From an uncultured Candidatus Berkelbacteria bacterium (GTDB lineage: Bacteria > Patescibacteriota > UBA1384 > UBA12157 > JAENIV01): a stretch of DNA of 64,000 bases. Every line of letters starts with the position of its first letter. Position 1 is the stretch's first letter. This document shows positions 6,858 through 45,491 of this stretch, in pieces. The notes below the pieces were generated by a model. The model was not told the origin of the DNA, ran no database searches, and was given only the letters and a program-made list of their open reading frames with translations. The stretch lies in the NCBI GenBank assembly GCA_963698075.1, contig OY969116.1, positions 465,830-529,829 on the forward strand, given 5' to 3'. Position numbers and translations under genes: made by a program.

Positions 6858-6886
6858 GTCGCGAGAGGCGAAGTGATCAGTCCAAG

Positions 6887-6924: not shown

Positions 6925-6999
6925 TATAGGACTCTTGATTTCTTTTCTTAATTTGATATAGTCTGAATATCTGATCGCACCCAGAGAGGAGCCCGAAGC

Positions 7000-23269: not shown

Positions 23270-23294
23270 ACATTTTGAAAAATGTCTAACATTT

Positions 23295-31000: not shown

Positions 31001-32363
31001 CATGGACTGGACTTGCGCCCGCGTAATCGTCGGCTGTCATTGTTCCACCGTCAGTAGCAACATAATGATAATCGGTAAAATTAGCCGATTCACAACTGGA
31101 ATCTGCCAGATTATTCGTCCTTGCCTCTTCAATCCTCACCGCCCCACCAGGGTCTCGGGCAATGCCCGAGGTTGTCACTCGTTCAACCCGGCCTTTGTCG
31201 GAATTCTCGACCGTAATGATATTGCCGGAGTCATTTGTATAGGTGGCACTGCCGCCGGCAGAGGTGATGGTCGCCGCGGCCGAGCCGCCTGATTTATCGG
31301 CAGTTAAATTGGTGGTTGTCCCTTGAACCCGTAGAGTGGTGGCGTCATTTAAAGTTGTCGAAGGCAAAAGTTTGGTCGCCAAAGTCTGCCCCCGGGCAAC
31401 ATTGGAATAATCTGAATAACCTCCGTTATAAGCTCGAAGTCGAAAACAATAACTGGTATTGCTAGTTAAACTACCAACATTAGTGGTTGCCACATCGCCA
31501 GTGGCTGATTCCGCGCCATATGAACCGGTGCAGCCAGCGGATTTCGAAATATAATAATTGGTGGCGCCGCTGGCTTTCGTCCAGTTGACCGTTAACTGCG
31601 AGTCTGTGGCGCCACTGCCGATATAAACCGCGGTCGGCGGCAAAAGCGGATTATAATCAACATGGGCGTAAACCTGGGTAACATAGGCATAATTAACGGC
31701 AGCATTGGCTTGCACTCCAATCTGTAAATTATCAACATCAGACCAAGTCCAGGCAACGCTCGTCTTTGGATTGGTCGCCCAAGTATCAGAGTAAGTCGCA
31801 TAAGAAGTGGTTGGACTTTGCCAAGCACCATAGTAAGCAGTGCCGCCGGTTTTTAAAGCTGATCTTACCTGAACGCCGGCGGTAGAACCGCGCTTGGCGA
31901 CATAATAAACCGAAACCGAATTGATAATGCCGAACTGGGAAGAATTGGTAATATTATATAAATCACCCGCACTGGCTGTGCCAGTTGAAACATAAGAAGT
32001 ATCTGCGTCATTAGTGGTTGTCACGCACCAGTTGGCTGAACCGCAGCCAATGCTGCCAGTTGGTGTCCATTGAGTACTATCGCCGGCGGCATTGGGGGCA
32101 AAATCAACTGTTGCGGCAAAAACCTTTCCAGGTTGAGCAAAATTGATCCGATAAAAAAGCGTCCCAATAAAGATCAAAAAAACGATCAAGAAAAAAGTAT
32201 GCACCCATTTTGAATATTTAAAACTTGACCATTGGTAATACCAATGAAACCGTTGCCTTAAAACATCGTGCAACGGCAAAAGAGCCGGCACAGTTGTCCG
32301 GGTGCTTTTTTGGAGCCGGATAATTTCTTTATCGAGGGATTCAAGCTCCTCGTCCGGTATCAT
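25068..32363 (-). CDS. Giant membrane-anchored surface protein (2431 aa) with LamG-like domains, FN3 repeats and C-terminal TM segments plus CarboxypepD_reg-like domains
   Basis: N-terminal cytoplasmic stretch and TM anchor. Three LamG-type C-terminal signatures (LISDYTIFNTALSGEKV, LISDFTIFNTALDATGIRAVY, and a third). FN3-like Y...Y..Y..V.A repeats. C-terminal hydrophobic helices flanking VTDNQGRYGFLV and VTDNEGRFRFLV modules. Confidence 0.65.
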   Translation of the reverse strand: MIPDEELESLDKEIIRLQKSTRTTVPALLPLHDVLRQRFHWYYQWSSFKYSKWVHTFFLIVFLIFIGTLFYRINFAQPGKVFAATVDFAPNAAGDSTQWTPTGSIGCGSANWCVTTTNDADTSYVSTGTASAGDLYNITNSSQFGIINSVSVYYVAKRGSTAGVQVRSALKTGGTAYYGAWQSPTTSYATYSDTWATNPKTSVAWTWSDVDNLQIGVQANAAVNYAYVTQVYAHVDYNPLLPPTAVYIGSGATDSQLTVNWTKASGATNYYISKSAGCTGSYGAESATGDVATTNVGSLTSNTSYCFRLRAYNGGYSDYSNVARGQTLATKLLPSTTLNDATTLRVQGTTTNLTADKSGGSAAATITSAGGSATYTNDSGNIITVENSDKGRVERVTTSGIARDPGGAVRIEEARTNNLADSSCESANFTDYHYVATDGGTMTADDYAGASPVHGSKVCRGILTGGGTWGSLSIGQSMTINAGDKYTGSVWVKSDSSASVNFAVWATGINGNEAGSTGAVAIGTGWTKLTATLTAAAAHDHSNLDLYVYTKSVYVYMDAEQEELGAYATSYIPTTTAAATRNAEVLYYAATNNASPIAGTVAFWVNPEFPVGDNGTHALTVIGGPSAPDARRIQIFKYSSNIWYFRVPNGDTLYPQWTTTSDIIPQNTWTHVALTWGDTGSTGQVYINGTNVGTISGSNPPPSGWANNTIYVGGGRGYANSLISDYTIFNTALSGEKVKGVYQGYAPSDINISDADINQLRVNWTVNSSDATNLHLERQGNCEGSWTDISTTIGGNDPNYTDGSPSANTSYCYRVHAAKTSAPDSGYVYTTRGQTLANKLKPSTSLDDQITFRMQGTNIDLNADKAAGSGAATITNSGANASYINDTTHILGVDSNNLKGRIEKVSTADIAQNPGGGVRIEEARTNLITYGNFSNGAPPTGWTAESGLTPARVSSPYLNPSYSSRLTNGAADKRYYQAQTLTAATHTISGYAQKSGGGTVDATVIQLYAATDLTSSGLSTTYTQVGSTDWYRLTATFTGTAASWNLGFYVKASQTVYVDCAQAELGAFATTYIPTGATGQLTRNAEVLTYPSSSNISMTAGTFSAWIKTDWAGNDNAVHVIADVSVDSSNLISFQKRAENVLRIYYRGGGSNKQVDYAVDWSANTWQHVAASWDTTSGYLRLYLNGAEVGTPATGIIQGTLDTSLYVGSADGTYPLNGLISDFTIFNTALDATGIRAVYSGYGPTVTGGTADELQITWDITDNSSNKSDYNYQHKQTADCTDMSGATSATNPDTGLAEYLPYCFQAQAYVTDGASSLYNVSSDAVYTSLAAPGLPTVNINSTTSLQIITNPGSDPPDMNFAVYNQTLGKYVVAATGGVQTGEDWETYATWGSGTGKANTSLAVNTTYTYQIKRRPASGQPASGSAFTTGVAKSTWANQPGQGTLAFKSGDSTSTDRLQITVSQNNNPTGGVNADGSTSNNTQYAISCDNGTTWLGAPSGGAAVCNQTFDNASWQTYADWGSSSGITTTGLLTNSKYTFIARARDGNSTPNVTSPSDSSWKYTRIETPATITVGLITPNSIALTITDSFTNISVGSSGIQFAETSGNPPEWGGGQDSAFTTWPTTLSTTDVGLTHGKAYKYKAKARNAEGVETSLSDQFGPWTTTTGTALLFKLPGQAISQAGDYKLTFTDNTPDTVTAGTSFDLPIYAADASNYRDNSSSDTVTLTSSDGAASLPAASSMTNGLVTYSGVVMKSVGIQTISGTGSGGTSSEFTVIPGPCSAGASTAVAAPTSLDVGSTSTVTITLKDSPGNKLAGHTVSVSSDQAGDSISFNRANTDTNGQILAYVTSGTPHTSTLTVRDTTAGSLCTLDDHPQITFNEVVPPPTPIPTPTPNAGDTEAPTAPSNLRATDIGTTAIDLAWDASTDNVGVAGYELYNADTNILIGTTTVTSYSLNSLTPSTIYRFKVRAYDAGNNYSDFSNILTISTRAPLTPEEKQIVEQGGIAAFLVMGNLPDTINAGQQFPNNVRISAADAGGKIVTGYNKAVYFSSSDKNASLSIDTKNMYTFTDVDAGIHEFAGKDFVLNTGGKQKLTVSDYSTSSTVEIEVLAQPAVPSVVRDFFTNAQNMSKVNTGVITTTTAVLLTPILVNTAFSLGTLLPQISYWFIQLLQLLGIRKRRKAWGLVFNSQSGQPIPLAMVRIFDKRYNRVLEQAVTDNQGRYGFLVREGTFYIQASKSGYTFPPKEKSSTFYEKIYAGGDFKIAGKDQTVAYNIPLDPHVGPGFVVNLWIWIVRLNRLLQKLRLPLLVLGLIFALVMVFISYNILYLLSLIFYLLLGILEYLRTFKARPYGIVTDTYNHPLGMVIVRIYLKENNRLLETDVTDNEGRFRFLVAPGVYYLVAAKPGYIDFKSHLMYLQKERTLVSTTIKLKKEEK

Positions 32364-32509: not shown

Positions 32510-34396
32510 ATGCAAAAAAGTAAATTGCCAATTTTGATGGGCGTGGGTCTTTTCCTGGTTGTTTTGATTATTTATCTTATTTTTCTTTGTCCTTCCATTC
32601 ATCCCCGGGATAATCCCGATATCGTCACCGCTGCCGCCACCTTAGGGATTCCCCACAGCCCTGGCTATCCTCTGTTTACGGTTTTAGGCCATCTTTTTAC
32701 CAAAATCCCAATCAGCACTATCCCCTGGCGGGTTAATTTAATGTCCGCGATTTTTTCCGCTGCCAGTGTTTTCGTTATTTATCTGATTATCCTCAAATTA
32801 ACCAAAAAACCTGCCTCGCCGGCAGGCGGGGTGGTACCCGCTTTAATTGGCGCCAGTATCCTTGCTTTCTCCTATTATTTTTTCTTGCAATCCTTATCTG
32901 CTGATGTCTTGAGTCTCAATAATCTTTTAGTTGGCCTGGAAATTCTGATTCTTTTAATTTGGTATGAAAAAAGAGAACAAAAATATTTATATTTATTTGC
33001 TCTATTCTTTGGTTTAGCTTTTTCCAATCATCAGATTTCTTTTATTCTTTTGCCGGCTTTTATTTATCTTTTTTGGGTAACGGATAAAGAAATCTTCCTT
33101 AATTGGCAATTGTTAATCAAACTGGCAATTTTTTTCATTTTAGGACTATTACCCTTCATTTATTTGCCAATCAGAGCCGCTCAAAATCCAGCCTATATCT
33201 GGGGTGAGCCGAATTCCTTTTTGGGATTTTTATATATGATTACGCGCAAGGAATATGTTGGCGACAACTTTCAAAATATCTCTTATTTTGCCTGGAGGAT
33301 TTGGGATTGGCTTAAATTAATCAGTTGGAAGGAATTTCTGCTTATTGGCTTAGGGCTGGGTATTTTAGGGATTGCCAGTTTTTGGAAAAAAGATAAAAAA
33401 CTGGCGATTTTTTTTCTTTTTTTGATAATCTTAAGCGGCCCAGTTTTTGCATTTTTCTCTGATATTCCCTCGGAGTGGGTAGAAGCAATTGGGATGGAGA
33501 GATTTTTTATTTTTTCGTACTTTATTTTTGCCATTGTCATCGGCTTAGGAATCAATTGGTTTTTTGAAAAATATCAAAAATTAAACTATCTATTAATCCT
33601 TTTGCCAATCGGATTTTTCCTCTTTAATTTTCATTTAATCAATTTACGCCATTATTACTATGCTTATGATCTGGGTCAAAATATTTTAAAAAATTTACCC
33701 GAAAACACGGTTTTGTTTGCTGGTTCTGATGTCCCTTTATTTGAGCTTTGGTACTTGCAAAAAGTCGAAAATGTAAGAACCGACGTTCAAGTTTTACCTG
33801 GGGCTGATCCAAAATTAGTTGGCCTGCCTTCATCAACCAAAAAACGCATTTTAGAAGAATTTCCTGATTATAACTTGCCAATTGAAGAATTAGCTAAAAA
33901 ATATCCGATTTATACCACTAATAATATTGATATCTTTTGGGGACCGCAGATAAAAAATTTTATTCCTGAAGGCATAGTCTATCAATATTCGCAAGATTTA
34001 GATTGGTTTAAGAATTTTGATGGGCTGACTGCCTTGAAGAATTTAAAAGTTTACCAAACCAGTGGTGAATACAAAATCAAAAATATTCCTGAACAATTCA
34101 CCTGGGAGATCGTCTACTATTACATTAATGGCTGGACAAGTTTAGGCGAAGCTTATCAAAAAAGAAAATTACCGGCTGACGCTGCCTTCTGTTATGAGAA
34201 GGCTTTAGAAATGGATCCTGATTATTTAGTTGCTCAAAACAATTATGCCGGCACCTTTTTGGAAAGAGGGCTGTATCAAGAAGCCATTGATCGTTTTAAG
34301 GCTATTTTGAAAAAATATCCTGGTCAACAATCAGCCCAGAATGGTCTGATGATGGCCCAACAAAAACTTACCGAACAGCAGTCTCCTGGCCAATAA
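32510..34396 (+). CDS. GT-C-type membrane glycosyltransferase (DUF2723/TMEM260-like) with C-terminal TPR repeats
   Basis: About 11 TM segments with an HSPGYPLFTVLGHLF motif near the N-terminus. C-terminal TPR repeats AYQKRKLPADAAFCYEKALEMDPDY.... Confidence 0.5.
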   Translation: MQKSKLPILMGVGLFLVVLIIYLIFLCPSIHPRDNPDIVTAAATLGIPHSPGYPLFTVLGHLFTKIPISTIPWRVNLMSAIFSAASVFVIYLIILKLTKKPASPAGGVVPALIGASILAFSYYFFLQSLSADVLSLNNLLVGLEILILLIWYEKREQKYLYLFALFFGLAFSNHQISFILLPAFIYLFWVTDKEIFLNWQLLIKLAIFFILGLLPFIYLPIRAAQNPAYIWGEPNSFLGFLYMITRKEYVGDNFQNISYFAWRIWDWLKLISWKEFLLIGLGLGILGIASFWKKDKKLAIFFLFLIILSGPVFAFFSDIPSEWVEAIGMERFFIFSYFIFAIVIGLGINWFFEKYQKLNYLLILLPIGFFLFNFHLINLRHYYYAYDLGQNILKNLPENTVLFAGSDVPLFELWYLQKVENVRTDVQVLPGADPKLVGLPSSTKKRILEEFPDYNLPIEELAKKYPIYTTNNIDIFWGPQIKNFIPEGIVYQYSQDLDWFKNFDGLTALKNLKVYQTSGEYKIKNIPEQFTWEIVYYYINGWTSLGEAYQKRKLPADAAFCYEKALEMDPDYLVAQNNYAGTFLERGLYQEAIDRFKAILKKYPGQQSAQNGLMMAQQKLTEQQSPGQ

Positions 34397-35486: not shown

Positions 35487-37511
35487 TTAATTAGCGAGCT
35501 CTGCATTTCTAATCATCACTTCACCCCTCATTGGCGTCCGAGAAACAATTCCAAAACTGAAAACATATTTCTCATTAAAATTCGGTTTACTGTTGGGAAG
35601 ATTAAATTGAAACATTTCAAAGGGAATATAGATTCTTTTCCAGCCTTGCCAATCACAGCTAAAATCATAAGATAGATAATTATTATCTTCCCCCGTAAGA
35701 GCAATCGAACAAAGCTTGTCATTGCTATCACCAAGAATTTCCAAATACAGGCCTTTATTTTCTTCCTCATTAATTAAAATTTTTCGATTATTGGTCAACA
35801 GAAAACGATTGTCTTCTAAATCAGTGTTTTTAAAAGCCTTGGTAAAAGAGTAATCAACTTTTAAAACATCATCTTCAATCGCAAAGCTCGGCTCATTATT
35901 AATCATTTTTATTTGCCAATCCTTTTTTGAACCGATTGCTAATGGTTTTTGCAAATGGACTTTTGAATAATCAGCTCGATAGATTCTTGCCAATTCAATT
36001 CCCTTCACCCGAATAATTTCGACCGGCTCATCTTTTAATAATTCCTGGGCTGTCAGACCAATATTTCCTTCTGAAAAAATTCGAGGTAAGACTATAAAAT
36101 CGGCGGCCCGAGCAAAACCAGCGACTTCTCCTTCATTGATAAAAATTGGGGTCGCTGAACGAGCGTCCTGAAGATATTTTTTAAGTTGCCAATCATAACC
36201 CATAATCGCCGTCCTCGAATCTTGAGGACTATTTTCATTCAGATATTGGCCAATCAATGGCACTGTTTCTCCTTCAGTACCGACTGGATATAATTTAAAG
36301 GCATTCTTGGTCCCACCCACTAAAATACTTGAATATAATCCCCAAAATGCGGGGCTGAAGGCAGTCAAAGGCAAGACAAGACATATCATTATCCCTAAAA
36401 TAATCAGATTTCTCATTAATCGAATGGGAAAATATTGGATTATTTGGTCAAGTCCTAGGGCGGCAATAATTAAAACGAGCGGGATGATTGGCAGCAACTG
36501 ATGAGAGGCGCCGTAATTGGTGACAATGCCGTTATAAGTTAAATAAATTAAAAGTAAAGCAACAATTAAAAATAATTTGTATTGGCTTTCCAAACCTTTT
36601 TTAATAAGATCTTTTAAAAAGACAATAATTTTGAAAAAGAGACCTAAAACAATAATCGGCGCCAACACGCCGAGAACCATGAGATAATAATATCTTAAAA
36701 TCGGAAAAGGATAATTCAAAAGATAAGGAGTGTAAGTTTTCGATTTGTAAAGCAAATACATCCCCTTAATATGCTCAACGTCTCGAAAACCCGACCACAA
36801 AAGAAGGGGCGTGCCAATCATGAATAGTAAAAAAATTACGTAAGGAAACCAAAATTTTTTTTCTTTAAGTCTTTTGTAGGAAACAATTGGAATCAAAACC
36901 ACGATTGAAAGAGCTAAAATGAAAATCGTTAATTTGACAAGGATTGATAATCCCAGGATAAATCCCAAATAATATAAATATTTAGTTTTATGGGTTTTAA
37001 AATAACTCAATAACAATTCTATCTGAATGATGATAAGCAAAACTAAAACTGTCTCCAAGTAAGCGCTTGAATTGTTGGTCACCACTAGCGGCAAAACGGC
37101 AAAGGCGAAACCGGCAAAAAAACCTGTTCTTAAATTAAACCAATTTTTGCCCAGCCTAAAAAGTAAAAGGGCAGAAATAGAACCAATAAAACAATTGACT
37201 AACCTAGCGCCAATCAGAGTTGAAAAGTTAAACTTCTCCGCGATCCAAATGCCGGCTGTCATCACCCACATTGCCAATGGTGGATTGCCAAAAACCGGTG
37301 ATGCTGGCGGATAAATCTGGTGCTTAAGTTGAAAAAAATAAGCCCAAAAATGCTTGGCAAACCATCCACCAATCCAATCAACATAAACTATTTCATCAGG
37401 CCTCCAGGCCATTTTTAAAGCCGCGATAATTCTTAAAATTAAGGCCAGTATAAAAATAAATATGGCGATAATCCATGATTTCTTTTTTAGTAAAAGTATA
37501 AAATTTTTCAT
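35487..37511 (-). CDS. GT-C-type polytopic membrane glycosyltransferase (ArnT/PMT-like) with a C-terminal soluble domain
   Basis: N-terminal region with 12 or more TM segments and an extracytoplasmic loop after TM1. A roughly 250-aa C-terminal domain. Confidence 0.5.
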   Translation of the reverse strand: MKNFILLLKKKSWIIAIFIFILALILRIIAALKMAWRPDEIVYVDWIGGWFAKHFWAYFFQLKHQIYPPASPVFGNPPLAMWVMTAGIWIAEKFNFSTLIGARLVNCFIGSISALLLFRLGKNWFNLRTGFFAGFAFAVLPLVVTNNSSAYLETVLVLLIIIQIELLLSYFKTHKTKYLYYLGFILGLSILVKLTIFILALSIVVLIPIVSYKRLKEKKFWFPYVIFLLFMIGTPLLLWSGFRDVEHIKGMYLLYKSKTYTPYLLNYPFPILRYYYLMVLGVLAPIIVLGLFFKIIVFLKDLIKKGLESQYKLFLIVALLLIYLTYNGIVTNYGASHQLLPIIPLVLIIAALGLDQIIQYFPIRLMRNLIILGIMICLVLPLTAFSPAFWGLYSSILVGGTKNAFKLYPVGTEGETVPLIGQYLNENSPQDSRTAIMGYDWQLKKYLQDARSATPIFINEGEVAGFARAADFIVLPRIFSEGNIGLTAQELLKDEPVEIIRVKGIELARIYRADYSKVHLQKPLAIGSKKDWQIKMINNEPSFAIEDDVLKVDYSFTKAFKNTDLEDNRFLLTNNRKILINEEENKGLYLEILGDSNDKLCSIALTGEDNNYLSYDFSCDWQGWKRIYIPFEMFQFNLPNSKPNFNEKYVFSFGIVSRTPMRGEVMIRNAELAN

Positions 37512-39658
37512 TGATAAACTCTTTTCAAAACATAAGCTAATCCTTTTAGGCGAAAAAGTCGGTATAAACGATTAAGTTTTTTGATAAAAATAGGACCGCT
37601 GGCTGGTACCATATAATAATCTACATCTGAACAAGCTAATAAACAACCAGGACAATTTTTTTGTTGAGTATATTTTAGAATTTCCGCTCTTTTCTTTCCC
37701 AAAAAAATTTCTTTAAGGGAATCATTTTTAATATCGCCTAAAATTATTTTATCCCAGCCCCAACATGGAAAAACCTTACCATTATTTTGGATAATTAAAG
37801 AATTTTTAAGTATTTGACAAAATCTCTTGGGATAAATTTTACCGTTTAATAAAAAATAATTAGGAATAGACCTTAATAAACCTTCTGACATAATATCAAC
37901 TTTTTTTATATGCGCATAAGAAATAGTATTTTCGATTTCCTTTTTTAGTTTCTTTAAATCAGACCCCGAAATCCAATAATACTGATGTTTATTTTTTCTT
38001 TTGAATAAATAATCTTTAGAAAAAGGTTGGAATGAAACTTGATAAATTTTTTCTTGTGAGGCTAAGTCTATTACCGATTTCATCTGATTGTAATTTATTT
38101 TCGAAACAACCATCGAAATATTAGTTAAGATTTTTTTATTCTTTAATAACTTGATCGCTCTTAAAATGTTTTCATAACTGTTTGGGCCTCTTATTTTTTC
38201 ATGCATTTCTTTATTGCCATCTACTGAAATATAAATTCTATCAACATATTTAGTAATTAGAGGAGCAGTTTGGGAATCAATTAAACTACCATTTGTTGTC
38301 AAAAAAACCTGATATCCAAGCTCCTTAGCCATTTTCAAAGTATTTAAAATATTAGGATAAAGTAATGGCTCCCCTCCGGAAAAAGAAACCTGCTCTGCCC
38401 CCAAGTTTCGTGCCTGTCTCAAAACCTTTTTTACTAAATTAAAAGATAAAGATTGTTTTTTTGTTTGCCAAATATCACACATCTGGCAATGAAAATTGCA
38501 AGCTGTTGTTAGTTCAATAAAAAGATTTTGTAATCTATTTTTAAAAAGAGGTTTTTGCCTCATTTCTATATTTTTTATCAACTTATCTACAGCCCTTGCT
38601 GTTTGATCCCAACTAAATTTTTTAGCAAATTTTATTGCTTCTTGTCCTGCTTTCTCTCTTTTTTCTTTATTAATCAAAACCTCGATAATAAGATTTTTTA
38701 ACTGGTTGAAATTATTTTTTTCAAATAACCAGCCTGTCTTCTCATTTAAAATTGAATCTTTTAAACCGGGAGCATTGGAAGCAATGGTCGGGGTTCCGCA
38801 GGCCGCTGCTTCAACCACTGTTAATCCCCACCCTTCTTTTATTGATGGCTGAACCGTCACCCAAGCCCTTTGAAACCATTTGGCCTTTTCTTTTTCAGAT
38901 AAAAATCCCAAAAAAGAAACATAAGAATCAAGTTTTAATCTTTGAGTTAATTTTTCAAGTCTTTTTTTGTCATTCCCTATTCCAATTATGACTAAACGGA
39001 TTTTAGGTATCAACCGGATAATGTCTTTAAAAACTTTCAAAAGTAAATCCACCCGTTTATATTTTTTTAGTCTCCCCAAATAAACAATTAGAGCTTCTTT
39101 TTGCTTAGGACCCGGAAGATAAGTAGTATAAGATAATCCTGGATTGATAATTTTAATATTTGAATAGCTAACCCCAAGATTAAATAATTCTTGCCCAGTA
39201 CTTTTAGAAATGGAGATAAAACAGCTTTTTTTATAGAGCAAGAAAAATCCCCGCTCTATTATCGCTAAAATATGGCCTAAAAATCCAAATTCTTTGACAA
39301 ATATTTCTCCAAAAATATCAAGCGCAATCGCAATACAGGGTTTAGATCTTACAAAAAGTGGAGTACAGTAAGGAATTTTATTGGTAAAATCCAAGACTAA
39401 ATCAAATTTATCTTTGTTCTTTAAATACCAAAAAACCGATGTTAAGTTAATAAGCCAGGTAGGTCCCCTTCTGATGACATTGATGCCATTGATTTTTTCT
39501 TCTGGCTTGCTTTTGGGAAATTTAGCACAAAGTAATGTTATTTCATATCTCTTTGTCAATCGAGAAAAAACCTCGTTAAGATAAACTTCGGCTCCGCCGG
39601 CTTTCGGATTTTTAATATCCCACCAATTAAAAATTAAAATTCTTTTTTTCCTTTGCAT
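37508..39658 (-). CDS. Fusion protein: N-terminal GT4 glycosyltransferase plus C-terminal radical SAM enzyme with a SPASM/twitch-like Cys cluster
   Basis: GT4 region EGWGLTVVEAAACGTP. Radical SAM CX3CX2C motif TTACNFHCQMCD with a GGEPLL glycine-rich motif. A C-terminal CWGW...CPGCLLAC cluster. Confidence 0.65.
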   Translation of the reverse strand: MQRKKRILIFNWWDIKNPKAGGAEVYLNEVFSRLTKRYEITLLCAKFPKSKPEEKINGINVIRRGPTWLINLTSVFWYLKNKDKFDLVLDFTNKIPYCTPLFVRSKPCIAIALDIFGEIFVKEFGFLGHILAIIERGFFLLYKKSCFISISKSTGQELFNLGVSYSNIKIINPGLSYTTYLPGPKQKEALIVYLGRLKKYKRVDLLLKVFKDIIRLIPKIRLVIIGIGNDKKRLEKLTQRLKLDSYVSFLGFLSEKEKAKWFQRAWVTVQPSIKEGWGLTVVEAAACGTPTIASNAPGLKDSILNEKTGWLFEKNNFNQLKNLIIEVLINKEKREKAGQEAIKFAKKFSWDQTARAVDKLIKNIEMRQKPLFKNRLQNLFIELTTACNFHCQMCDIWQTKKQSLSFNLVKKVLRQARNLGAEQVSFSGGEPLLYPNILNTLKMAKELGYQVFLTTNGSLIDSQTAPLITKYVDRIYISVDGNKEMHEKIRGPNSYENILRAIKLLKNKKILTNISMVVSKINYNQMKSVIDLASQEKIYQVSFQPFSKDYLFKRKNKHQYYWISGSDLKKLKKEIENTISYAHIKKVDIMSEGLLRSIPNYFLLNGKIYPKRFCQILKNSLIIQNNGKVFPCWGWDKIILGDIKNDSLKEIFLGKKRAEILKYTQQKNCPGCLLACSDVDYYMVPASGPIFIKKLNRLYRLFRLKGLAYVLKRVYQ

Positions 39659-40485
39659 TTTTTTCTCCAGGCTAAAGCATATATATCAATCAAGAAAAAA
39701 GGTCTAAATGGCCAAAGTCGAAGAAGGGCTATTATAATTTTCTTAGTCCGGGAAGATTTCGCGCCCTGTTCCAACATCTCAACAAACCAACCTCCTTCGG
39801 ACCAAACCTGATAACCAAATCGATGTTTTTTGAGAATCCTTTTTAAAAGAAAAGGTGTTTGTTCATTGATGTGCATAATCGGATCATAATAATCATCTTT
39901 TATTTTTTCTTTCGGCGGCTTTCGATAAATTAAATAGTGCCAAAGTTTATATAAGGAAAAGCCATAAAAAGCCAAACGATTAGGATAAGTATAAATAATG
40001 AGAAATCCGGAGTCTTTGAGTGATTTTTTTATTTTTGGTAAAAGAAAATCAATTTCCCAGGATCTAAGATGTTCAATCACCTGCATTAAAAAGATTCTGT
40101 CATAACAATTTTTGGGCAAGTTTAAATTTTTAAAATCTGTTTGTTTTAAACTGATCCTATCTCTAATTTTTTTATGCTGATTCAGAATAGACTCTTGAGA
40201 TAATTTAATGGCAGCTTCTGCAAAATCAACTCCTTCAACGATAGCTCCTAGCCGCGCGAACCGAACCAAAATTTCCCCTCTTCCACAACCTAAATCTAAG
40301 ATTTTCATTCCAGGTTTGATTTGAGAGATATCAATAACTCTTTTATATTCTTTATCTATTTTAGTTCCTTGACTTTTAAGAAAATCTGAATAGTTGCCCC
40401 AACTTAAAAAATACTCTTCGGTATAATATTTCGGGTCGACAGAAAGTGAAAAATTCTTTTTCCTCATTAAAAATCCTTTTTCCAC
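39634..40485 (-). CDS. Class I SAM-dependent methyltransferase
   Basis: Motif I ILDLGCGRGEIL. Confidence 0.6.
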   Translation of the reverse strand: MEKGFLMRKKNFSLSVDPKYYTEEYFLSWGNYSDFLKSQGTKIDKEYKRVIDISQIKPGMKILDLGCGRGEILVRFARLGAIVEGVDFAEAAIKLSQESILNQHKKIRDRISLKQTDFKNLNLPKNCYDRIFLMQVIEHLRSWEIDFLLPKIKKSLKDSGFLIIYTYPNRLAFYGFSLYKLWHYLIYRKPPKEKIKDDYYDPIMHINEQTPFLLKRILKKHRFGYQVWSEGGWFVEMLEQGAKSSRTKKIIIALLRLWPFRPFFLIDIYALAWRKKCKGKKEF

Positions 40486-40493
40486 ATTCTTCT

Positions 40494-41246
40494 TTAAACT
40501 GTTGCAGTAATTCTTTTCAAATCGAATAAATCATTTTCTTGTCCATCTTCTGTGGAGAATGCTGCCAAATATCCTGTTTTTTTAACTATTATTTTAATAG
40601 TTTCGTTTGTCTGGCCGTAAGGATAAGCTAAAAAATAAATTTTCTTCCTTAATTTTTTCTCAATTTCTAATTTTGAACTTAAGATTTCTTCTTGAAGTTT
40701 ATTCTCCGTAATTTGGGTTAATAAAGAATGGGTTTTTGTATGAGAGCCGAAAGCAATTAAGCTGTCTTTCATTTTTTTGATCTCATTCCAAGATAAATAA
40801 TTCCCAAATCTATTTCTTTTCCCAATATAATTACTGATTAAAAACAAGGTGGCTGGAATATTGTATTTTTTCAAAATCGGATAGGCATTAGTGTAGCTAT
40901 CTTTATAGCCATCATCCAAAGTAATGACCAGTGAGATCGACGATAATTCAACTTTTCCCTTTAAAGCCGAAACTAAATCATCTAAAGAAATTATCGGATA
41001 TCTTTTTGATAAATATTTCATTTGAAATTCAAAATTCTTTTTAGAAATAGACCAATCCTGTAATAAAGAAGAATTTCTTTTCCGCTCATTAGGTATTATT
41101 TGATGGTAGTTCAAAATATAAAATTTCCTTTTATGACTGAATAATTTATCCTTAAGAATCAGTAAATTTAAATAAAAAATAAAACCTATCTGATACTTAA
41201 CTAACAAATAAATAAAACTTTTAATTTTAATCAATAAATTTCTCAT
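40494..41246 (-). CDS. Polysaccharide deacetylase (NodB-homology, CE4)
   Basis: LTLDDGYKDSY...ATLFL...HTKTH motifs. Confidence 0.65.
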   Translation of the reverse strand: MRNLLIKIKSFIYLLVKYQIGFIFYLNLLILKDKLFSHKRKFYILNYHQIIPNERKRNSSLLQDWSISKKNFEFQMKYLSKRYPIISLDDLVSALKGKVELSSISLVITLDDGYKDSYTNAYPILKKYNIPATLFLISNYIGKRNRFGNYLSWNEIKKMKDSLIAFGSHTKTHSLLTQITENKLQEEILSSKLEIEKKLRKKIYFLAYPYGQTNETIKIIVKKTGYLAAFSTEDGQENDLFDLKRITATV

Positions 41247-41967
41247 TCGACCTCTTTATATCTTTGGCCAAATTAAAATCAGGATATTGGGAAAGTAAAA
41301 TATCCAAATTTTCCATTACGCAATGTCCACTAATGACACCGGGGAAAGTATTCGGCTGACAAATTTTTTTCATTCCTAATTTTTCATATCCTTTATTATA
41401 CATATTGATAAATTGAGTGATGACTTCATTAAAATCCAATCCAATTTGGTCGCAAATTCTGGCTTCTTCTTGGGCTCGGGCAATTGCCAAACCATAACGA
41501 AAAGTTGAAAAAAGTTTAGCAAATTCTGTTATTTCAGAAGATTTTTTAATTTTCGGATTTAAACCTGCTTGTTTGAAATATTTATATGCTTTATAGCAAG
41601 CAGAATGAGAAGTCCCACCGATCCATTTTTCAAAAGTTTTGAGTCCTTTGATTAAATTATTATGTTGACCAACCACTGGTGAATGAACGCAAAAAACATT
41701 AGTAAATTCTTGAATTGCTTTTGTAGTGCCTACTTTTACGGTTGAATGAATTATTACCAGTCGAGGTTTGAATTTCTTGATATATTCTATTGTTATAGTT
41801 TCAAAGGATTGAGAATAAGGTAGACAAATATGCATTATATCAATTGGGGTCTGAATTTCTTTTTTTTCTTTATCTAAAGTTTGTAAAGTTTTATCGCTTT
41901 TTTTAAAAATTTCATAAAGAGCTTGACCAACCTGACCCATGCCGATAATAAGATTAAAATTAGTCAT
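41227..41967 (-). CDS. NAD(P)-binding Rossmann-fold protein (UDP-sugar dehydrogenase-like, short)
   Basis: N-terminal IIGMGQVGQALYEIF dinucleotide-binding motif. Function is not resolved. Confidence 0.35.
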   Translation of the reverse strand: MTNFNLIIGMGQVGQALYEIFKKSDKTLQTLDKEKKEIQTPIDIMHICLPYSQSFETITIEYIKKFKPRLVIIHSTVKVGTTKAIQEFTNVFCVHSPVVGQHNNLIKGLKTFEKWIGGTSHSACYKAYKYFKQAGLNPKIKKSSEITEFAKLFSTFRYGLAIARAQEEARICDQIGLDFNEVITQFINMYNKGYEKLGMKKICQPNTFPGVISGHCVMENLDILLSQYPDFNLAKDIKRSNEKFID

Positions 41968-42890
41968 AATTTTTTCCCTTTTATTGAATTAGAGAGGCCC
42001 TTCCTGATTTGAAAACCATGATAAATCATCCCCAACCTGAAGATTCGATAGGTCAAAATATCCAAAATGGGGATAAGTAAATAAATCAATTTTTCTTTCC
42101 GATATTCAAAGGGTAATTGTTTGTATAAAACAGAAATTCTTTTTGGCCAGCTAAATAAATTCTTTAAAAAAAATTGTTTTTCCCTGGGTAAATTTTTCCG
42201 ATGTTTAGATAATAATTTTGCTTTCCACCAGCCATAAAGATAATATTTTTTTATTAAATTAGTAAGAGTTTTGGGCATTTCATGAAAAACAATTGCCTTT
42301 GGTTTGTATAAAAATTTATAACCCATAAAATAAATTCTCCAGCTTAGATCAGCATCTACGCACCATCTAAAAGATGGATCAAATAAGCTTGCCTTTTTGA
42401 CCAGCTCAATTTTATAGGCACAATTAGCAGTGGCCAAGAAGGGTGGTTGGAGCTTGTTATCTATCATATGCTTTTTAGGATGGAATAAGCATACCTCGGC
42501 ATACTTTTCAATTAGATTTTTAGGGTTTAGGGCCCGGATGTCTCCTCCTACCCCAGCTATTTTTTTATTTTGAGAAAAACCTCTAACCAGATGGAATAAC
42601 CAGTCCTTGTCGGCGGCACAGTCAGCATCAATAAAAGCAACGATTTCTCCTTTGGCTTTTTTAATTCCTAAATTTCTTGCCGAAGCAACTCCCAATTTTT
42701 TTTCTTTAAAATAGCGAACATTGTATTTTTTAATAATATTGGCTGTTGAGTCGGTTGAATTATTATCTATAATCAATATCTCATATTTGTTCTTTGGATA
42801 AGTTAAATTCAGAAGAGATTGAATGCAGATTTCGATTGTTTTTTCCTCGTTGTAGGCGGGAACAATGATTGTAACTTTAGGATAAGTCAT
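41964..42890 (-). CDS. GT2-family glycosyltransferase
   Basis: VTIIVPAYNEE...IIDNNSTD...DADC motifs of GT-A fold family 2. Confidence 0.7.
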   Translation of the reverse strand: MTYPKVTIIVPAYNEEKTIEICIQSLLNLTYPKNKYEILIIDNNSTDSTANIIKKYNVRYFKEKKLGVASARNLGIKKAKGEIVAFIDADCAADKDWLFHLVRGFSQNKKIAGVGGDIRALNPKNLIEKYAEVCLFHPKKHMIDNKLQPPFLATANCAYKIELVKKASLFDPSFRWCVDADLSWRIYFMGYKFLYKPKAIVFHEMPKTLTNLIKKYYLYGWWKAKLLSKHRKNLPREKQFFLKNLFSWPKRISVLYKQLPFEYRKEKLIYLLIPILDILTYRIFRLGMIYHGFQIRKGLSNSIKGKKL

Positions 42891-42897
42891 CTTAATT

Positions 42898-43803
42898 TTA
42901 TCGATATTTTATCTTAGCGCTAATGATTCCTATAAAAAAGGCTAACTGCCTTAAAAAGGATAAAAATAAGGCAATAATTTTTTCAGGCCATTTGGGAAAA
43001 AAATGAGCAATTTTAAAGGGAAAAATAAAAATTTCATCAAGAGTTTTTTTGAAAACTGATAAGGGATCGGATTTGATATAGAAAGAGTTTTGATGTTTTT
43101 TCCTAACTAAATACATTCCTCTACCATAAGTAAAATTTTGTAACAAAAAAGAACTAAATGTATCCCTTTGCAAATGTTCAACTTGCATTCTCGGCTCATA
43201 AATTAATTTATAACCATTTTTTATTATTCTCCAACAAAATTCTGAATCTTCACCTGCTTCTTTATCAAAATCCGTGTCAAAATTGCCTATTTTAGCAAAG
43301 ATCTCCTTTTTAATAGACAGATTACAGGTGGGTAAAAATAAGGCTTCTTTATCTTTCTTGAACTTATTAATAAAATGATTCAAAATAGCCTGGTCTATCT
43401 GGGCGATAATGTTTTGTTTATAAAATTTTACCACTGTTGGACCGCCAATTCCTCCAACTCTCTTGGGCGCTTTTCCAAAACTCATCAAGATTGATTCCAG
43501 CCAATTTTTATTAGCAATACAATCCGTATCAATAAAAACAATGATTTTCCCCTTTGTTTTTTTGATGCCTAGATTACGGGAGGAAGCCCAGCCTTTATTT
43601 CTTTGATAAAAATAATTTAGATTATACGCATTGTATTTGGACTGAAGCCCAGTAATAAACTCTTTAGTGCCATCATTAGAACCATCATCAACAATAATAA
43701 TTTCATATTTTTCTTTAGGATAGGTTTGATTAAAAAGAGACTTTAAGCAATTTGCTAAAAAAATTTTTCTGTTATATGTCGGAATGATTATTGAGATATC
43801 CAT
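42898..43803 (-). CDS. GT2-family glycosyltransferase
   Basis: ISIIIPTYNR...VDDGSNDGT...DTDC motifs. Confidence 0.7.
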   Translation of the reverse strand: MDISIIIPTYNRKIFLANCLKSLFNQTYPKEKYEIIIVDDGSNDGTKEFITGLQSKYNAYNLNYFYQRNKGWASSRNLGIKKTKGKIIVFIDTDCIANKNWLESILMSFGKAPKRVGGIGGPTVVKFYKQNIIAQIDQAILNHFINKFKKDKEALFLPTCNLSIKKEIFAKIGNFDTDFDKEAGEDSEFCWRIIKNGYKLIYEPRMQVEHLQRDTFSSFLLQNFTYGRGMYLVRKKHQNSFYIKSDPLSVFKKTLDEIFIFPFKIAHFFPKWPEKIIALFLSFLRQLAFFIGIISAKIKYR

Positions 43804-43849
43804 TTTTTATTGTTTTATTATTCTCTTTTTCATTTCTCTGATATAATTC

Positions 43850-45367
43850 TTGCAGAAGAAAGGATTGTTAATGTTTTTTCGGCGTCTTATTGCCTACAAT
43901 GCACTTGTCCAAATTATTGGTAAAGCCTTAGGCATTGCTTTTTCTTTGGGCACCGTGATTCTCTTGACGCGTTATTTAGGAATTGCCGGTTTTGGCCAAT
44001 ATAGCACAGCTTTAGCTTTTGTCGGTTTCTTTGTTATCTTGGCTGATTTGGGTATTTATGGAATCACGGTCAGAGAAATGGCTCAAAAGAAAGAAAAAAA
44101 AGTCAAGATTTTGAGCAATGTTTTTATCTATCGAATATTTTCTTCCTTTTTGATTTTCGGAGTTGCCTTTTTCATTAGTCTTTTAATGCCTTATGATCCA
44201 ATAGTTAAGTTGGCCATTGGCATTGTCGCTTTACAATCATTATTTGCCAGTTTAACCACTTTTTACGGCACAATTTTCCAGGTTAATTATCGAATGGATT
44301 TACCAACATTTATTGAAATATTTTCGCGGGCGTTGTATTTTGCTCTGACATATCTAGCAATTCAATTTAAATTTAATCTCTTAGGAATTTTTTGGTTTTT
44401 TGTGATTTCGACTTTTATCAATCTACTTTTAGTTTACCTATTAAGTTTGAAATTTATCAAATTAAAATTGCAACTTGATTGGAAATTTTTAAGATACTTT
44501 TTCCGCGAAAGTTGGCCTTTGGGTTTAGTCGCTGTTTTGGGAATGATCAATTTTCAAATTGGTATTATTTTACTTTCTTTCTCTAAACCAATGAATGATG
44601 TCGGAATTTATGGTAGCGCTTACCGTGTCTTCGAGAATTTAATTATTATCCCTGTAATTTTTGTTAATTTAATTTTCCCAAAATTATCCCAATTAATTAA
44701 GAAAGACTTTGCTGAATCCAAAAAATTTTTTCAAAAAACATTTAATATTTTATTAATAGTGGTTTTCCCTATCGTAATTTTTTTCTTTTTTTTGGCTCCC
44801 TACTGTATTTATATCATTGCTGGCAAAGAATTTATTGCCGCTTCAGAGCCACTAAAGGTTCTGATGGTCGTTCTTTTATTTACTTTCTTATCTTATCCCT
44901 TAACTCAGCTTTTGGTGGCAGGTGGTAAACAGAAATGGCTAATTTGGAATGCCGCCTTTTTTATTGGTCCAACGATAATTTTAAACCTTATTTTCATTCC
45001 TCATTATACCTATAACGGTACTGCTTTGGCCACTTTAATAACAACTTTTATTAATTTTTTATTTCTTTTGATACTTACTCATTATTTACTTAAGATCCAA
45101 CCAAACTTTAACTTAATTAAAAAACTTATTCTACCATCTTCCCTTTTGATCTTTTTCCTCTATTTAATACTTTCTACTTCATTTTTTTCTCAAGAAAGAT
45201 TCAGCCAAATCAGTTTAATTAATCAATTACTTTTAGCCATTTCTGCCTTTGTGGCTACTGGTAGTCTTTACTCGCTGGTTCTTTTAGGACTCGGGATAGT
45301 TCCTTTAAATTTTATCAAAGGGCTTATTTTCAAGAGGTCGAATACCCGAAGCTTGCTTCGAGGATGA
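43850..45367 (+). CDS. Wzx-like oligosaccharide/polysaccharide flippase (MOP superfamily)
   Basis: About 14 TM segments, 505 aa, with a polysacc_synt-like N-terminus. Confidence 0.65.
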   Translation: MQKKGLLMFFRRLIAYNALVQIIGKALGIAFSLGTVILLTRYLGIAGFGQYSTALAFVGFFVILADLGIYGITVREMAQKKEKKVKILSNVFIYRIFSSFLIFGVAFFISLLMPYDPIVKLAIGIVALQSLFASLTTFYGTIFQVNYRMDLPTFIEIFSRALYFALTYLAIQFKFNLLGIFWFFVISTFINLLLVYLLSLKFIKLKLQLDWKFLRYFFRESWPLGLVAVLGMINFQIGIILLSFSKPMNDVGIYGSAYRVFENLIIIPVIFVNLIFPKLSQLIKKDFAESKKFFQKTFNILLIVVFPIVIFFFFLAPYCIYIIAGKEFIAASEPLKVLMVVLLFTFLSYPLTQLLVAGGKQKWLIWNAAFFIGPTIILNLIFIPHYTYNGTALATLITTFINFLFLLILTHYLLKIQPNFNLIKKLILPSSLLIFFLYLILSTSFFSQERFSQISLINQLLLAISAFVATGSLYSLVLLGLGIVPLNFIKGLIFKRSNTRSLLRG

Positions 45368-45450
45368 AGGCCTTTTTTGCCAGCAAAATTTACTACTTGA
45401 AAAAAACTTCTCCGTAAGGAGTAATACCTCGAGGCTTGCTTCGAAGAAAG
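45342..45450. repeat. Left arm of inverted repeats bracketing the GT2 gene at 45492-46214
   Basis: AAAAAACTTCTCCGTAAGGAGTAATACCTCGAGGCTTGCTTCGAAG (45399-45446) is the near reverse complement of 46247-46297. An additional CCCGAAGC-TT-GCTTCGAGG palindrome lies at 45344-45362. Confidence 0.5.
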
Positions 45451-45491
45451 TTTATTCATCCAAGAAAAACTGGCAATCAATCCCGGCCTTT

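Follow-up and report, generated by a model that had tools for sequence, protein, structure and literature searches.

The locus raises the question of whether a single reading frame really joins a GT4 glycosyltransferase to a radical SAM (rSAM) enzyme and, if so, what such a protein would do. Below, the window means the whole 64,000-nt stretch of DNA that was analysed. The DNA comes from a small, uncultured bacterium of Patescibacteria (CPR) type, whose LepA has its nearest named relatives in the Patescibacteria group and Berkelbacteria (60-69% identity).

Domains of the 716-aa reading frame

The ORF runs in the order GT4, short linker, radical SAM core, twitch/SPASM-like domain and basic amphipathic tail. 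Its features are as follows.

37508..39658 (minus strand): GT4 + radical SAM fusion ORF, 716 aa, ATG start, uninterrupted
38555..39658 (minus strand): GT4 domain (GT-B, retaining-type), residues 1-368; from Pfam, alignment and AF2
38528..38576 (minus strand): fusion junction with A6 run, internal ATG and linker
38024..38527 (minus strand): radical SAM partial TIM-barrel core, residues 378-545, with CX3CX2C and GGEP
37631..37819 (minus strand): twitch/SPASM-like auxiliary-cluster domain, residues 614-676; from Pfam SPASM
37511..37603 (minus strand): basic amphipathic C-terminal helices, residues 686-716; from hydrophobic moment and models

A first-pass annotation had described one ORF joining GT4 to radical SAM, and this description holds: the frame is uninterrupted, and Pfam places Glycos_transf_1 at residues 185-343 (E 1.3e-44, 152 bits against a cut-off of 26.4), Radical_SAM (PF04055) at residues 381-532 (4e-26, 92.6 bits against 29.5) and SPASM (PF13186) at residues 614-672 (9.4e-9, 35.9 bits against 21.5). 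All three scores are well above chance level, and the second of them supports the radical SAM assignment, which the annotation had left to profile HMMs. The Glyco_transf_4 profile matches residues 21-175 of the ORF slightly below its Pfam cut-off (25.9 against 28.5). The stretch of residues 2-364 can be aligned in full with stand-alone GT4 genes, and in an alignment with 39 stand-alone clade members the domain keeps 33 of the 33 nearly invariant columns, which include G21-G22-A23-E24, R196, K201, E275 and E283; the last two residues belong to the EX7E motif (EGWGLTVVE, residues 275-283). AF2 pLDDT is ~95 throughout this domain, the final helix of which comprises residues 350-368. Its closest solved relatives are the retaining GT4 enzymes Tll1590, MshA, BshA and TarM. 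As in retaining GT4 enzymes generally (MshA, BshA, TarM, PimB', WaaB; CAZy GT4), the N-terminal half appears to be a complete GT-B with EX7E; the difference is that only the 716-aa fusion has a radical SAM of this clade as partner.

The radical SAM core carries CNFHCQMC (residues 387-394, nt 38477-38500), with the CX3CX2C cysteines C387, C391 and C394 in a motif that is 93-100% conserved across the rSAM clade, and GGEP at residues 428-431; the PF04055 profile score exceeds its threshold, and the partial TIM-barrel fold and the GGE motif are both present. An auxiliary cysteine cluster had also been proposed for the C-terminus. Its two motifs are present (CWGW, residues 632-635; CPGCLLAC, residues 669-676), but there are five conserved auxiliary cysteines (C614, C632, C669, C672 and C676) and not the seven of SPASM. 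They are laid out as C614-X12-G-X4-C632, a 36-residue gap and C669-X2-C672-X3-C676. None of them varies within the 5-member family, and across 86 stand-alone clade members their conservation is 91-100%. The canonical SPASM motif has seven cysteines (CX9-15GX4C - gap - CX2CX5CX3C - gap - C), and twitch is an abridged SPASM with the first four of these, a hairpin Cys pair and CX2C, holding one cluster (PMC6231123). In the fusion, and likewise in the 86 clade members, the seven-Cys motif is incomplete, with neither the CX5C spacing nor the terminal Cys. The pattern matches the first four twitch cysteines plus one extra, and C632, C669 and C672 align with C276, C317 and C320 of anSME. Because only five cysteines are conserved, the domain appears to be twitch-like, as in BtrN, MoaA and SkfB, rather than a canonical SPASM, and it probably holds one auxiliary cluster. 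The canonical SPASM enzymes anSME, PqqE, SuiB and CteB thus differ from the fusion, which has CX2CX3C for their CX2CX5CX3C and misses the terminal Cys, and around which their peptide or protein substrate context is absent.

The C-terminal helices have a hydrophobic moment of ~0.5 and are present in both structure models; no 19-residue window reaches transmembrane hydrophobicity, and they may serve peripheral membrane attachment. The full-length AF2 model has a pTM of 0.62, so no confident interface is predicted between the domains.

The fusion junction

GT4 homology stops, and the N-termini of stand-alone rSAM proteins start, at about residue 366. The in-frame ATG of Met366 lies at 38561-38563, the A6 homopolymer at 38571-38576, and the linker has ~9 residues (369-377) with AF2 pLDDT below 50; the junction is 5-10 nt past the A6 run, with no spare sequence. 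As read from the sequence, A5 instead of A6 gives a TAG stop that precedes the ATG of Met366 by 2 nt, and A7 gives a TAA 13 codons further on. The two domains could accordingly be two ordinary adjacent genes, merged by an A6 run whose recorded length is off by 1 nt, namely a GT4 of ~363 aa with its stop and a radical SAM protein of ~351 aa starting from Met366. The coincidence of the two homology boundaries fits such an error, as do the alignment of Met366 with the starts of stand-alone homologues (for P0123, MQKNFQNGLDNL vs MRQKPLFKNRLQNL), the typical compact gene pair that A5 would restore (...KLIKI-TAG, ATG 2 nt on) and the unfused state of all four close rSAM relatives.

An identical 716-aa ORF is found in an independent Logan contig (L005, run ERR10755944), which agrees with the window at 19,308 of 19,309 nt. 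The lone difference is a homopolymer indel, G5 vs G4, at 27804-27808, which means that homopolymer length is neither error-free nor invariant in these data, and this discordant homopolymer counts on the side of an artefact. On the other side, the 929-kb contig and the Logan contig were assembled in different ways, and both show the A6 run. Moreover, ORFs of at least 150 aa are tightly spaced over the window, the 2431-aa gene is unbroken, and no sign of widespread indels was seen. Finally, analogous GT-rSAM fusions are frequent in the wider clade, so that a real fusion would be biologically unremarkable. We therefore regard a sequence error as unlikely and the fusion as quite probably genuine. 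Since the closest relatives are unfused, it is either young and lineage-specific or else the 1-nt homopolymer error just described.

Relatives and genomic setting

The annotation had pointed to conservation in relatives as a check on the fusion. At 57-79% identity, the four nearest rSAM relatives are each encoded by a gene of their own in a syntenic locus, and a search of 5.8 billion protein clusters found no other protein that pairs this GT4 clade with this rSAM clade. The wider clade holds analogous fusions of GT2 or GT4 with rSAM. An exhaustive profile search of 1.84 billion representatives returned 147 proteins at E<=1e-30, and architectures were counted over the best 149 matches below P0121, the family's own cluster representative. 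Among these 149, 59 are multidomain and ~18 carry GT2; the fusion partners that the search revealed are GT2, GT4, additional rSAM domains and B12-rSAM. P0219, P0227 and P0234 are GT2-rSAM-SPASM proteins, as confirmed by Pfam. P0318 has GT4 (1367-1542) directly before rSAM (1585-1742) and SPASM (1848-1912), and the 1646-aa gene adjoining it on contig L043 reads GT4-GT4-rSAM-SPASM. In P0328, the twitch-rSAM domain is fused to a homologue (30% identity) of the B12-rSAM of the window. The five GT2- or GT4-rSAM-SPASM metagenome proteins resemble the 716-aa ORF in rSAM clade, in their GT-rSAM-twitch/SPASM order and in glycan-locus context. They differ in that their rSAM domains are just 24-37% identical to that of the fusion and the GT part is either GT2 or a distant GT4, which indicates fusion events independent of the one studied here. 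These five proteins had no name in any source and no paper on them was found; nor was any publication found on such GT-rSAM fusions.

Stand-alone members of the rSAM clade are located within Bac_transf/Wzy polysaccharide loci. On L044 and L048, which carry the nearest outgroups (E 1e-76), rSAM genes are interleaved with GT4, GT2, GT9, Bac_transf and Wzy_C, and L044, L046 and L048 have clusters with 4-8 rSAM genes. The gene order in cultured Bacteroides nordii is rSAM, GT4, Bac_transf, Wzi, RmlC, UGDH. The GT4 of the fusion belongs to a Patescibacteria-rich clade whose members are often C-terminally fused (65 of 119 matches exceed 470 aa), the extra regions including a Wzx-like flippase and GT2 domains. 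The rSAM family is recurrently found beside or fused to glycosyltransferases in cell-surface glycan gene clusters.

The setting of the fusion itself is of the same kind. A polysaccharide or glycosylation locus had been claimed, and the region from 32 to 55 kb of the window is indeed a glycan locus: besides the GT4 of the fusion it contains one more GT4, four GT2 and three GT-C/PMT_2-type proteins, along with GtrA, a polysaccharide deacetylase and a Wzx-like flippase. The locus also encodes a sortase and the 2431-aa surface protein. The B12-rSAM and the two methyltransferases that the annotation had placed there were found as well.

32510..34396 (plus strand): TMEM260-like/PMT_2 + TPR protein O-mannosyltransferase-like GT-C, syntenic in L001 and L004
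34368..35456 (minus strand): second GT4, stand-alone, syntenic in L001 and L004
35487..37511 (minus strand): PMT_2/GT-C-type membrane glycosyltransferase; start overlaps fusion stop (ATGA)
39634..43803 (minus strand): upstream co-directional genes, namely methyltransferase, polysaccharide deacetylase, NDP-sugar-dehydrogenase-like and two GT2
39634-40485 (minus strand): class I methyltransferase, upstream of the fusion
41227-41967 (minus strand): NDP-sugar-dehydrogenase-like ORF, truncated (model positions 110-294 of 413)
47432-48856 (minus strand): B12-binding radical SAM, HpnJ-like, 265 bits against a family cut-off of 577
49322-50131: class I methyltransferase, same glycan locus

Because of the ATGA start/stop overlap, the PMT_2 gene and the fusion are probably translationally coupled, and the order rSAM then PMT_2, with overlap, recurs in L001 and L002. 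The truncated NDP-sugar-dehydrogenase-like ORF in the operon is a weak hint of a uronate.

Candidate functions

No NCBIfam equivalog cut-off is reached by the 716-aa protein. The best match is TIGR04317, a tungsten-cofactor oxidoreductase rSAM maturase (128.9 bits against 380). Membership was likewise rejected for the BlsE family (TIGR04466, 72.3 bits against 400), for MoaA (76-87 bits against 231-325), for TIGR04157, the Bacteroidetes glycosyltransferase accompanying radical SAM (77.2 bits against 400), and for the RiPP maturases PapB, StsB, ScmF and GeoRSP (76-105 bits against 340-625, with no RRE or precursor found).

The best structural match is BlsE, the cytosylglucuronate decarboxylase of the blasticidin S pathway (PDB 7VOB), which shares the fold and the CxxxCxMC motif at an identity of just ~17%. 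BlsE works unfused in a nucleoside-antibiotic pathway, whereas the fused domain is joined to GT4 in a surface-glycan locus. The 2013 paper on BlsE describes a typical [4Fe-4S] radical SAM enzyme and does not contain the word 'auxiliary'; the clade of the fused rSAM has its five conserved auxiliary cysteines, and its chemistry may therefore differ from that of BlsE. BtrN and SpeY, twitch radical SAM dehydrogenases of aminoglycoside/aminocyclitol pathways, are less similar in structure and sequence than BlsE, are neither fused to nor paired with polysaccharide-assembly glycosyltransferases, and lack the fifth Cys (CX2CX3C). Together with the GT2/GT4 fusions in the clade and the Bac_transf/Wzy loci, the structural match to BlsE supports the link between the rSAM and glycan synthesis that had been suggested. 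Two of the reactions proposed with it fare less well: C-methylation is unlikely because the fused rSAM has no B12 domain, the separate B12-rSAM gene being the better candidate, and thioether formation is unlikely because a peptide substrate, an RRE and a precursor gene are all absent.

The same absences bear on the idea that the rSAM is a peptide or protein maturase (of a sacti/ranthipeptide RiPP, or anSME-like with the giant surface protein or some other secreted protein from the locus as its target), the polypeptide in question also being glycosylated by GT4. Partial matches of the PapB, ScmF and GeoRSP models and the presence of a sortase and a 2431-aa surface protein speak for it. However, every peptide-maturase model is far under its cut-off, and peptide-binding domains at the N-terminus, RRE included, are lacking, stand-alone members beginning ~5 residues before strand beta-1. 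Nor is there a conserved small ORF: the 35-aa ORF of L001 is a PMT_2 N-terminal remnant, a 121-aa ORF is a three-helix membrane protein, and the small ORF is absent in L004. A peptidase and an ABC exporter are both absent, and it is cytoplasmic GT2 and GT4 domains and Bac_transf, rather than peptides, that recur as conserved partners. We consider a maturase very improbable.

Slightly less remote, and still improbable, is that the rSAM carries out a skeletal rearrangement of a sugar (contraction of the ring to give a cyclitol or carbocycle, or formation of a C-C bond) or has the polyprenyl carrier as its substrate instead, its partner in both cases being the HpnJ-like B12-rSAM. HpnJ is what the latter most resembles, its homologue is fused to the rSAM clade in P0328, and clusters of 4-8 rSAM genes suggest chemistry beyond a single oxidation. 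Yet the HpnJ match falls far short of its cut-off, the fused domain itself clearly matches BlsE best, and nothing within the window points to a lipid substrate.

On balance, we favor, by a modest degree, a cytoplasmic enzyme, soluble or peripheral, with two activities in a cell-surface glycan pathway: addition of a sugar and tailoring of that sugar by radical chemistry. At the inner membrane face, the GT4 domain would use an NDP-sugar as donor to add a sugar to a glycan intermediate linked to polyprenyl phosphate. The rSAM domain would cleave SAM reductively at the C387/C391/C394 cluster, and the 5'-deoxyadenosyl radical would take a ring hydrogen from the same sugar, while it is still part of the donor or once it has been attached. 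Of the auxiliary cysteines, C614, C632, C669 and C672 probably bind one [4Fe-4S] cluster, which would shift the electron that resolves the substrate radical; C676 would be a spare ligand or hydrogen donor. We infer the substrate and reaction of the fused rSAM wholly; the likeliest outcome would be of BlsE/BtrN type, either a decarboxylation that turns a hexuronate into a pentose or a secondary-alcohol oxidation that yields a keto-sugar, and radical epimerisation would be the next option. The tailored lipid-linked glycan would then be flipped and transferred outside by the co-transcribed PMT_2/GT-C enzymes. The fusion would have arisen recently by stop-codon loss between abutting genes, joining a clade-wide GT-rSAM partnership.

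More tentatively, and with somewhat less than even confidence, the fusion may be read as a natural Rosetta stone for a widespread, uncharacterised twitch-type rSAM family with the signature CxxxCxMC + CX12GX4C...CX2CX3C, whose members would partner one-to-one with glycosyltransferases in oxygen-independent radical tailoring of sugars on lipid-linked surface glycans. If this is true, decarboxylation, oxidation, epimerisation or rearrangement would be the candidate reactions of the family, and the clusters with 4-8 such enzymes would carry out glycan chemistry that is so far undescribed in polysaccharide biosynthesis.

Domains of the fusion ORF and its locus

The first-pass annotation described a single 716-aa frame joining a GT4 glycosyltransferase to a radical SAM (rSAM) core and a SPASM-like domain, and the ORF listing contains this frame, ATG-initiated, at 37508-39658 on the reverse strand. 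All three domains are backed by Pfam, and the motifs quoted at the time were found in the ORF.

Features of the fusion ORF (37508-39658, reverse strand), in residues
21-175: Glyco_transf_4 (Pfam, sub-threshold)
185-343: Glycos_transf_1 (Pfam, E 1.3e-44)
381-532: Radical_SAM (Pfam, E 4e-26)
387-394: CNFHCQMC (motif search of the ORF)
614-672: SPASM (Pfam, E 9.4e-9)
632-635: CWGW (motif search of the ORF)
669-676: CPGCLLAC (motif search of the ORF)

Stand-alone GT4 genes align with the GT4 half end to end (residues 2-364), and in an alignment with 39 stand-alone clade members this half keeps all nearly invariant columns, including GGAE (21-24), R196, K201 and both glutamates of EX7E. It was modelled by AF2 with a pLDDT of about 95, and its closest solved relatives are the retaining GT4 enzymes Tll1590, MshA, BshA and TarM. 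The rSAM half, modelled alone, reached a pLDDT of 86.8 and has exactly eight cysteines, of which three serve the SAM cluster and the other five lie in the C-terminal domain. Both domains fold in the full-length AF2 model, in which the linker (369-373) has low confidence; its pTM of 0.62 speaks neither for nor against a fixed interface between the halves, and none is predicted. The ORF holds two intact catalytic domains in one frame.

The five C-terminal cysteines are arranged as C614-X12-G-X4-C632, a 36-residue gap, and C669-X2-C672-X3-C676. All five are invariant in the five-member family formed by the rSAM half and its four close relatives, and are 91-100% conserved in 86 stand-alone members of the wider rSAM clade; C632, C669 and C672 align with C276, C317 and C320 of anSME. 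The canonical SPASM motif, CX9-15GX4C-gap-CX2CX5CX3C-gap-C, binds two clusters, whereas twitch domains are truncated SPASM domains that bind one (PMC6231123). Since the canonical motif's first four cysteines are kept, together with one extra, we describe the domain as twitch-like with one predicted auxiliary cluster.

The fusion ORF belongs to a glycan locus at 32-55 kb. The B12-binding rSAM enzyme and the two methyltransferases that had been assigned to this locus were recovered, the latter as class I enzymes.

Features in and near the glycan locus
25068-32363, reverse strand: 2431-aa surface protein with fn3, CBM_4_9 and Laminin_G_3 domains
39634-40485: class I methyltransferase
41227-41967, reverse strand: 246-aa dehydrogenase-like ORF
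41964-42890: GT2 glycosyltransferase
47432-48856, reverse strand: B12-binding rSAM enzyme
49322-50131: class I methyltransferase
32-55 kb: four GT2 genes and a second GT4
32-55 kb: three membrane transferases of GT-C/PMT_2 type, including a TMEM260-like one with TPR repeats
32-55 kb: Wzx-like flippase, GtrA, polysaccharide deacetylase and sortase

The best NCBIfam match of the B12-binding enzyme is the hopanoid-associated HpnJ (265 bits against a cut-off of 577). The 246-aa ORF scores 43 bits, with a cut-off of 190, for an NDP-sugar dehydrogenase model, of which it matches only positions 110-294 of 413; truncated or strongly diverged and of uncertain function, it offers a weak hint of a uronate. 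From the GT4-rSAM gene to the flippase block (38000-46000) the G+C content is 0.30-0.33, compared to 0.40-0.49 in most of the window, consistent with a glycan island that varies or is exchanged horizontally. Elsewhere in the window, ARAGORN predicts a tRNA-Ile with a UAU anticodon (23197-23270, reverse strand); such a tRNA is uncommon in bacteria, where AUA is usually read by a lysidine-modified CAU tRNA. LepA (2383-4260, reverse strand) has 625 aa against 574-616 aa in most close homologues, and the NCBIfam LepA model aligns to it in two stretches, the best starting only at residue 110; this pattern suggests that extra sequence is inserted into the N-terminal GTPase domain or close to it. The closest named relatives of this LepA, with 60-69% identity, are from the Patescibacteria group and Berkelbacteria, and the host, whose contig measures 929 kb, is of Patescibacteria/CPR type.

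The fusion junction

In a full-length search of 5.8 billion clusters, no protein with both halves was found besides the fusion ORF itself, and the remaining matches cover only the GT4 half. A search with the rSAM half returned four close relatives (79, 60, 58 and 57% identity), each of them a stand-alone protein 348-359 aa long, after which identity falls below 30%; conservation of the fusion in relatives, proposed earlier as a check, was therefore not seen. The GTDB species-representative genomes include neither the genome of the window nor a close relative, and yielded only relatives of 21-30% identity.

The loci of the close relatives (L001, L002 and L004) are syntenic with the window. L001 and L002 carry rSAM, PMT_2, GT4 and TMEM260-like genes in the order of the window, with the same rSAM/PMT_2 overlap and without the upstream GT4. 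The order in L004 is rSAM, GT4a, GT4b and PMT_2, and directly after its methyltransferase, at the position of the intact GT4 of the window, lies a 57-aa remnant matching residues 4-44 of the GT4 in the window with 86% identity. This remnant and the synteny comparison indicate that the GT4 ancestrally adjoined the methyltransferase, that the locus has been heavily rearranged and that the fusion is probably lineage-specific. Within 5685-7552 of L004, the orthologues of the window's GT2 (41964-42890) and of its methyltransferase (39634-40485) form one fused 565-aa gene, with the 57-aa remnant after it. Fusion, fission and decay of genes are frequent in this glycan locus.

GT4 homology stops and rSAM homology starts at about residue 366, and the sequence from Met366 onward, MRQKPLFKNRLQNL, resembles the N-terminus of the stand-alone relative P0123, MQKNFQNGLDNL. 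The in-frame join lies directly 3' of a run of six A at 38571-38576. As read from the sequence, five A would give ...KLIKI followed by TAG, with an ATG 2 nt later, and seven A would give TAA 13 codons further. Given this structure, the fusion results either from a stop codon lost very recently or from an error of 1 nt. An error in the length of the run would have merged two ordinary genes, which a 1-nt change would restore as separate genes. Caution is also urged by the one base at which the window and the Logan contig (L005) differ in 19.3 kb: the run of G at 27804-27808 has five bases in the window and four in Logan. With four, the 2431-aa surface-protein ORF is broken. The difference may stem from an error in the reads or the assembly, or from heterogeneity in the population, for instance a phase-variable tract. 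Against an error at the junction, the independently built Logan contig (run ERR10755944) carries the identical fusion ORF, though both assemblies might share reads, and the close spacing of window ORFs of at least 150 aa, together with the uninterrupted 2431-aa gene, gives no sign of widespread indel errors. We therefore regard an artefact as unlikely and the fusion as probably real.

Fusions and neighbourhoods in the wider rSAM clade

A profile of the five family members, run against 1.84 billion representative proteins, matched 147 proteins at E<=1e-30. Among the best 149 matches below P0121, the family's own cluster representative, 59 have at least 480 aa; by local BLAST against the window's own domains, about 18 of these 149 carry a GT2 domain and roughly 35 a tandem rSAM-rSAM arrangement.

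Domain architectures of selected clade proteins (Pfam)
P0219, P0227, P0234: GT2-rSAM-SPASM
P0220: methyltransferase-rSAM-SPASM
P0211: rSAM-rSAM-GT2-rSAM
P0328 (864 aa): B12-rSAM and rSAM-SPASM, the N-terminal half 30% identical to the window gene at 47432-48856
P0318 (1920 aa): GT4 (1367-1542) directly before rSAM (1585-1742), SPASM (1848-1912)

In P0328 a homologue of the window's B12-binding enzyme is fused to a member of the twitch-rSAM clade, which suggests a shared pathway for both radical enzymes of the window. The gene adjoining P0318 encodes a 1646-aa GT4-GT4-rSAM-SPASM protein, and these two proteins indicate that the same order of GT4 followed by rSAM-SPASM evolved independently, there with GT4 domains that are distant ones. 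Fusions are also common in the GT4 clade: 65 of its 119 matches exceed 470 aa, with Wzx-like or GT2 domains among the added regions.

The gene order of L044, the neighbourhood of the nearest outgroup P0207, is rSAM, B12-rSAM, rSAM, GT4, rSAM, GT2, GDSL, GT4, Bac_transf and rSAM. L048 reads rSAM, B12-rSAM, GT4, GT4, GT9, rSAM, GT2, GT4, Bac_transf and Wzy_C, and L046 has six rSAM genes, then an rSAM-rSAM-GT2-rSAM protein and a GT2. Four metagenomic clusters (L046 701-13053, L044 129-11768, L048 1-12182 and L043 122-12452) interleave 4-8 rSAM genes with GT2, GT4, GT9, Bac_transf and Wzy, and include giant proteins of 1920 aa (GT2-GT28C-rSAM-GT4-rSAM-SPASM), 1646 aa (GT4-GT4-rSAM-SPASM) and 1038 aa (rSAM-rSAM-GT2-rSAM).

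A GT4 is immediately adjacent in about 11 of 37 distant relatives (21-30% identity) from named genomes, which serve as context only and not as members of the same subfamily, since several differ in auxiliary cysteine content. One of them, of 22% identity with four auxiliary cysteines and the motif CPMKCQMC, overlaps a GT4 in the cultured gut bacterium Bacteroides nordii JCM 12987 (BAJA01000030; L029 6631-12709, with the rSAM gene at 6631-7653), in a capsule locus of rSAM, GT4, Bac_transf, Wzi, RmlC and UDP-glucose dehydrogenase genes. The rSAM clade is associated clade-wide with cytoplasmic glycosyltransferases and initiating phosphoglycosyl transferases.

Proposed function and significance

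BlsE, which decarboxylates the glucuronate moiety of cytosylglucuronic acid, has an unusual CxxxCxMC motif (PMC3715490). The window enzyme has this motif too, and it is enriched in the clade (91 of 208 motifs, compared to 6 of 78 in more distant matches). Despite its likeness to BlsE, the window rSAM falls outside the BlsE family (72 bits against a cut-off of 400 for the BlsE model). It reached no NCBIfam equivalog cut-off, and its best match was a tungsten-cofactor maturase with 129 bits against 380.

A role of the rSAM domain as a peptide or protein maturase appears very improbable, since there is no RRE and no conserved precursor and every maturase model scores far under its cut-off. Two candidate RiPP precursors were rejected: a 35-aa ORF in L001 (708-815), just upstream of the rSAM gene that stands alone there, appears to be a remnant of a PMT_2 N-terminus (FVLRLIAALKF, LILRIIAALKM in the window's PMT_2), and a 121-aa ORF at 46933-47298 encodes a small membrane protein.

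The fusion protein has no segment of transmembrane grade, and its C-terminal helices are basic and amphipathic (hydrophobic moment about 0.5). From this we infer a soluble or peripheral protein that would work at the cytoplasmic stage, with NDP-sugars or polyprenyl-linked intermediates as its substrates. The GT4 domain would add a sugar from which the rSAM domain would abstract a ring hydrogen, with the auxiliary cluster handling electrons; the product may then be exported and used by the co-transcribed GT-C enzymes. The outcome we favour is a BlsE-like uronate decarboxylation or a BtrN-like oxidation, with an epimerisation as the second choice. The multi-rSAM clusters leave room for a rearrangement, or for a lipid-directed reaction carried out with the HpnJ-like B12-rSAM, but no specific observation favours this reading, which we consider rather improbable. 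The UDP-glucose dehydrogenase gene of the B. nordii locus is, like the dehydrogenase-like ORF of the window operon, a weak hint of a uronate, weak because UDP-glucose dehydrogenase genes are common in capsule loci. With an ArnC-like GT2, ArnT-like GT-C enzymes and a deacetylase of PF01522, the family to which ArnD belongs, the window locus may be seen as a loose parallel to the Arn pathway.

To our knowledge, sugar-modifying radical SAM enzymes come almost only from antibiotic pathways (BtrN, BlsE, DesII, AprD4, NeoN). In the literature searched we found no pertinent description of GT-rSAM fusions, of this clade or of radical SAM enzymes in polysaccharide loci. GT4 enzymes and twitch rSAM enzymes that act on sugars are known kinds; what appears to be new is that the twitch rSAM enzymes of a clade with its own cysteine signature are integrated into polysaccharide assembly, repeatedly fused to glycosyltransferases and paired with them one to one.

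A clade related to the sugar rSAM enzymes of antibiotic pathways sits in the core machinery of surface-glycan assembly. Its members, which occur in Patescibacteria, in Bacteroides and in several further lineages, are fused to or alternate with GT2 and GT4 and adjoin genes for Bac_transf, Wzy, Wzx and GT-C. Should they modify sugars while these are lipid-linked, they would bring to light glycan structures and oxygen-independent routes that present annotation of polysaccharide loci overlooks, for example a route from a uronate to a pentose in which no NAD-dependent decarboxylase takes part. As one polypeptide, the fusion offers the GT-rSAM pairing for in vitro tests, and the B. nordii capsule locus is a cultivable and tractable system for the function of such enzymes. 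For Patescibacteria, the locus is further evidence that much of a small genome is devoted to unusual surface glycosylation.
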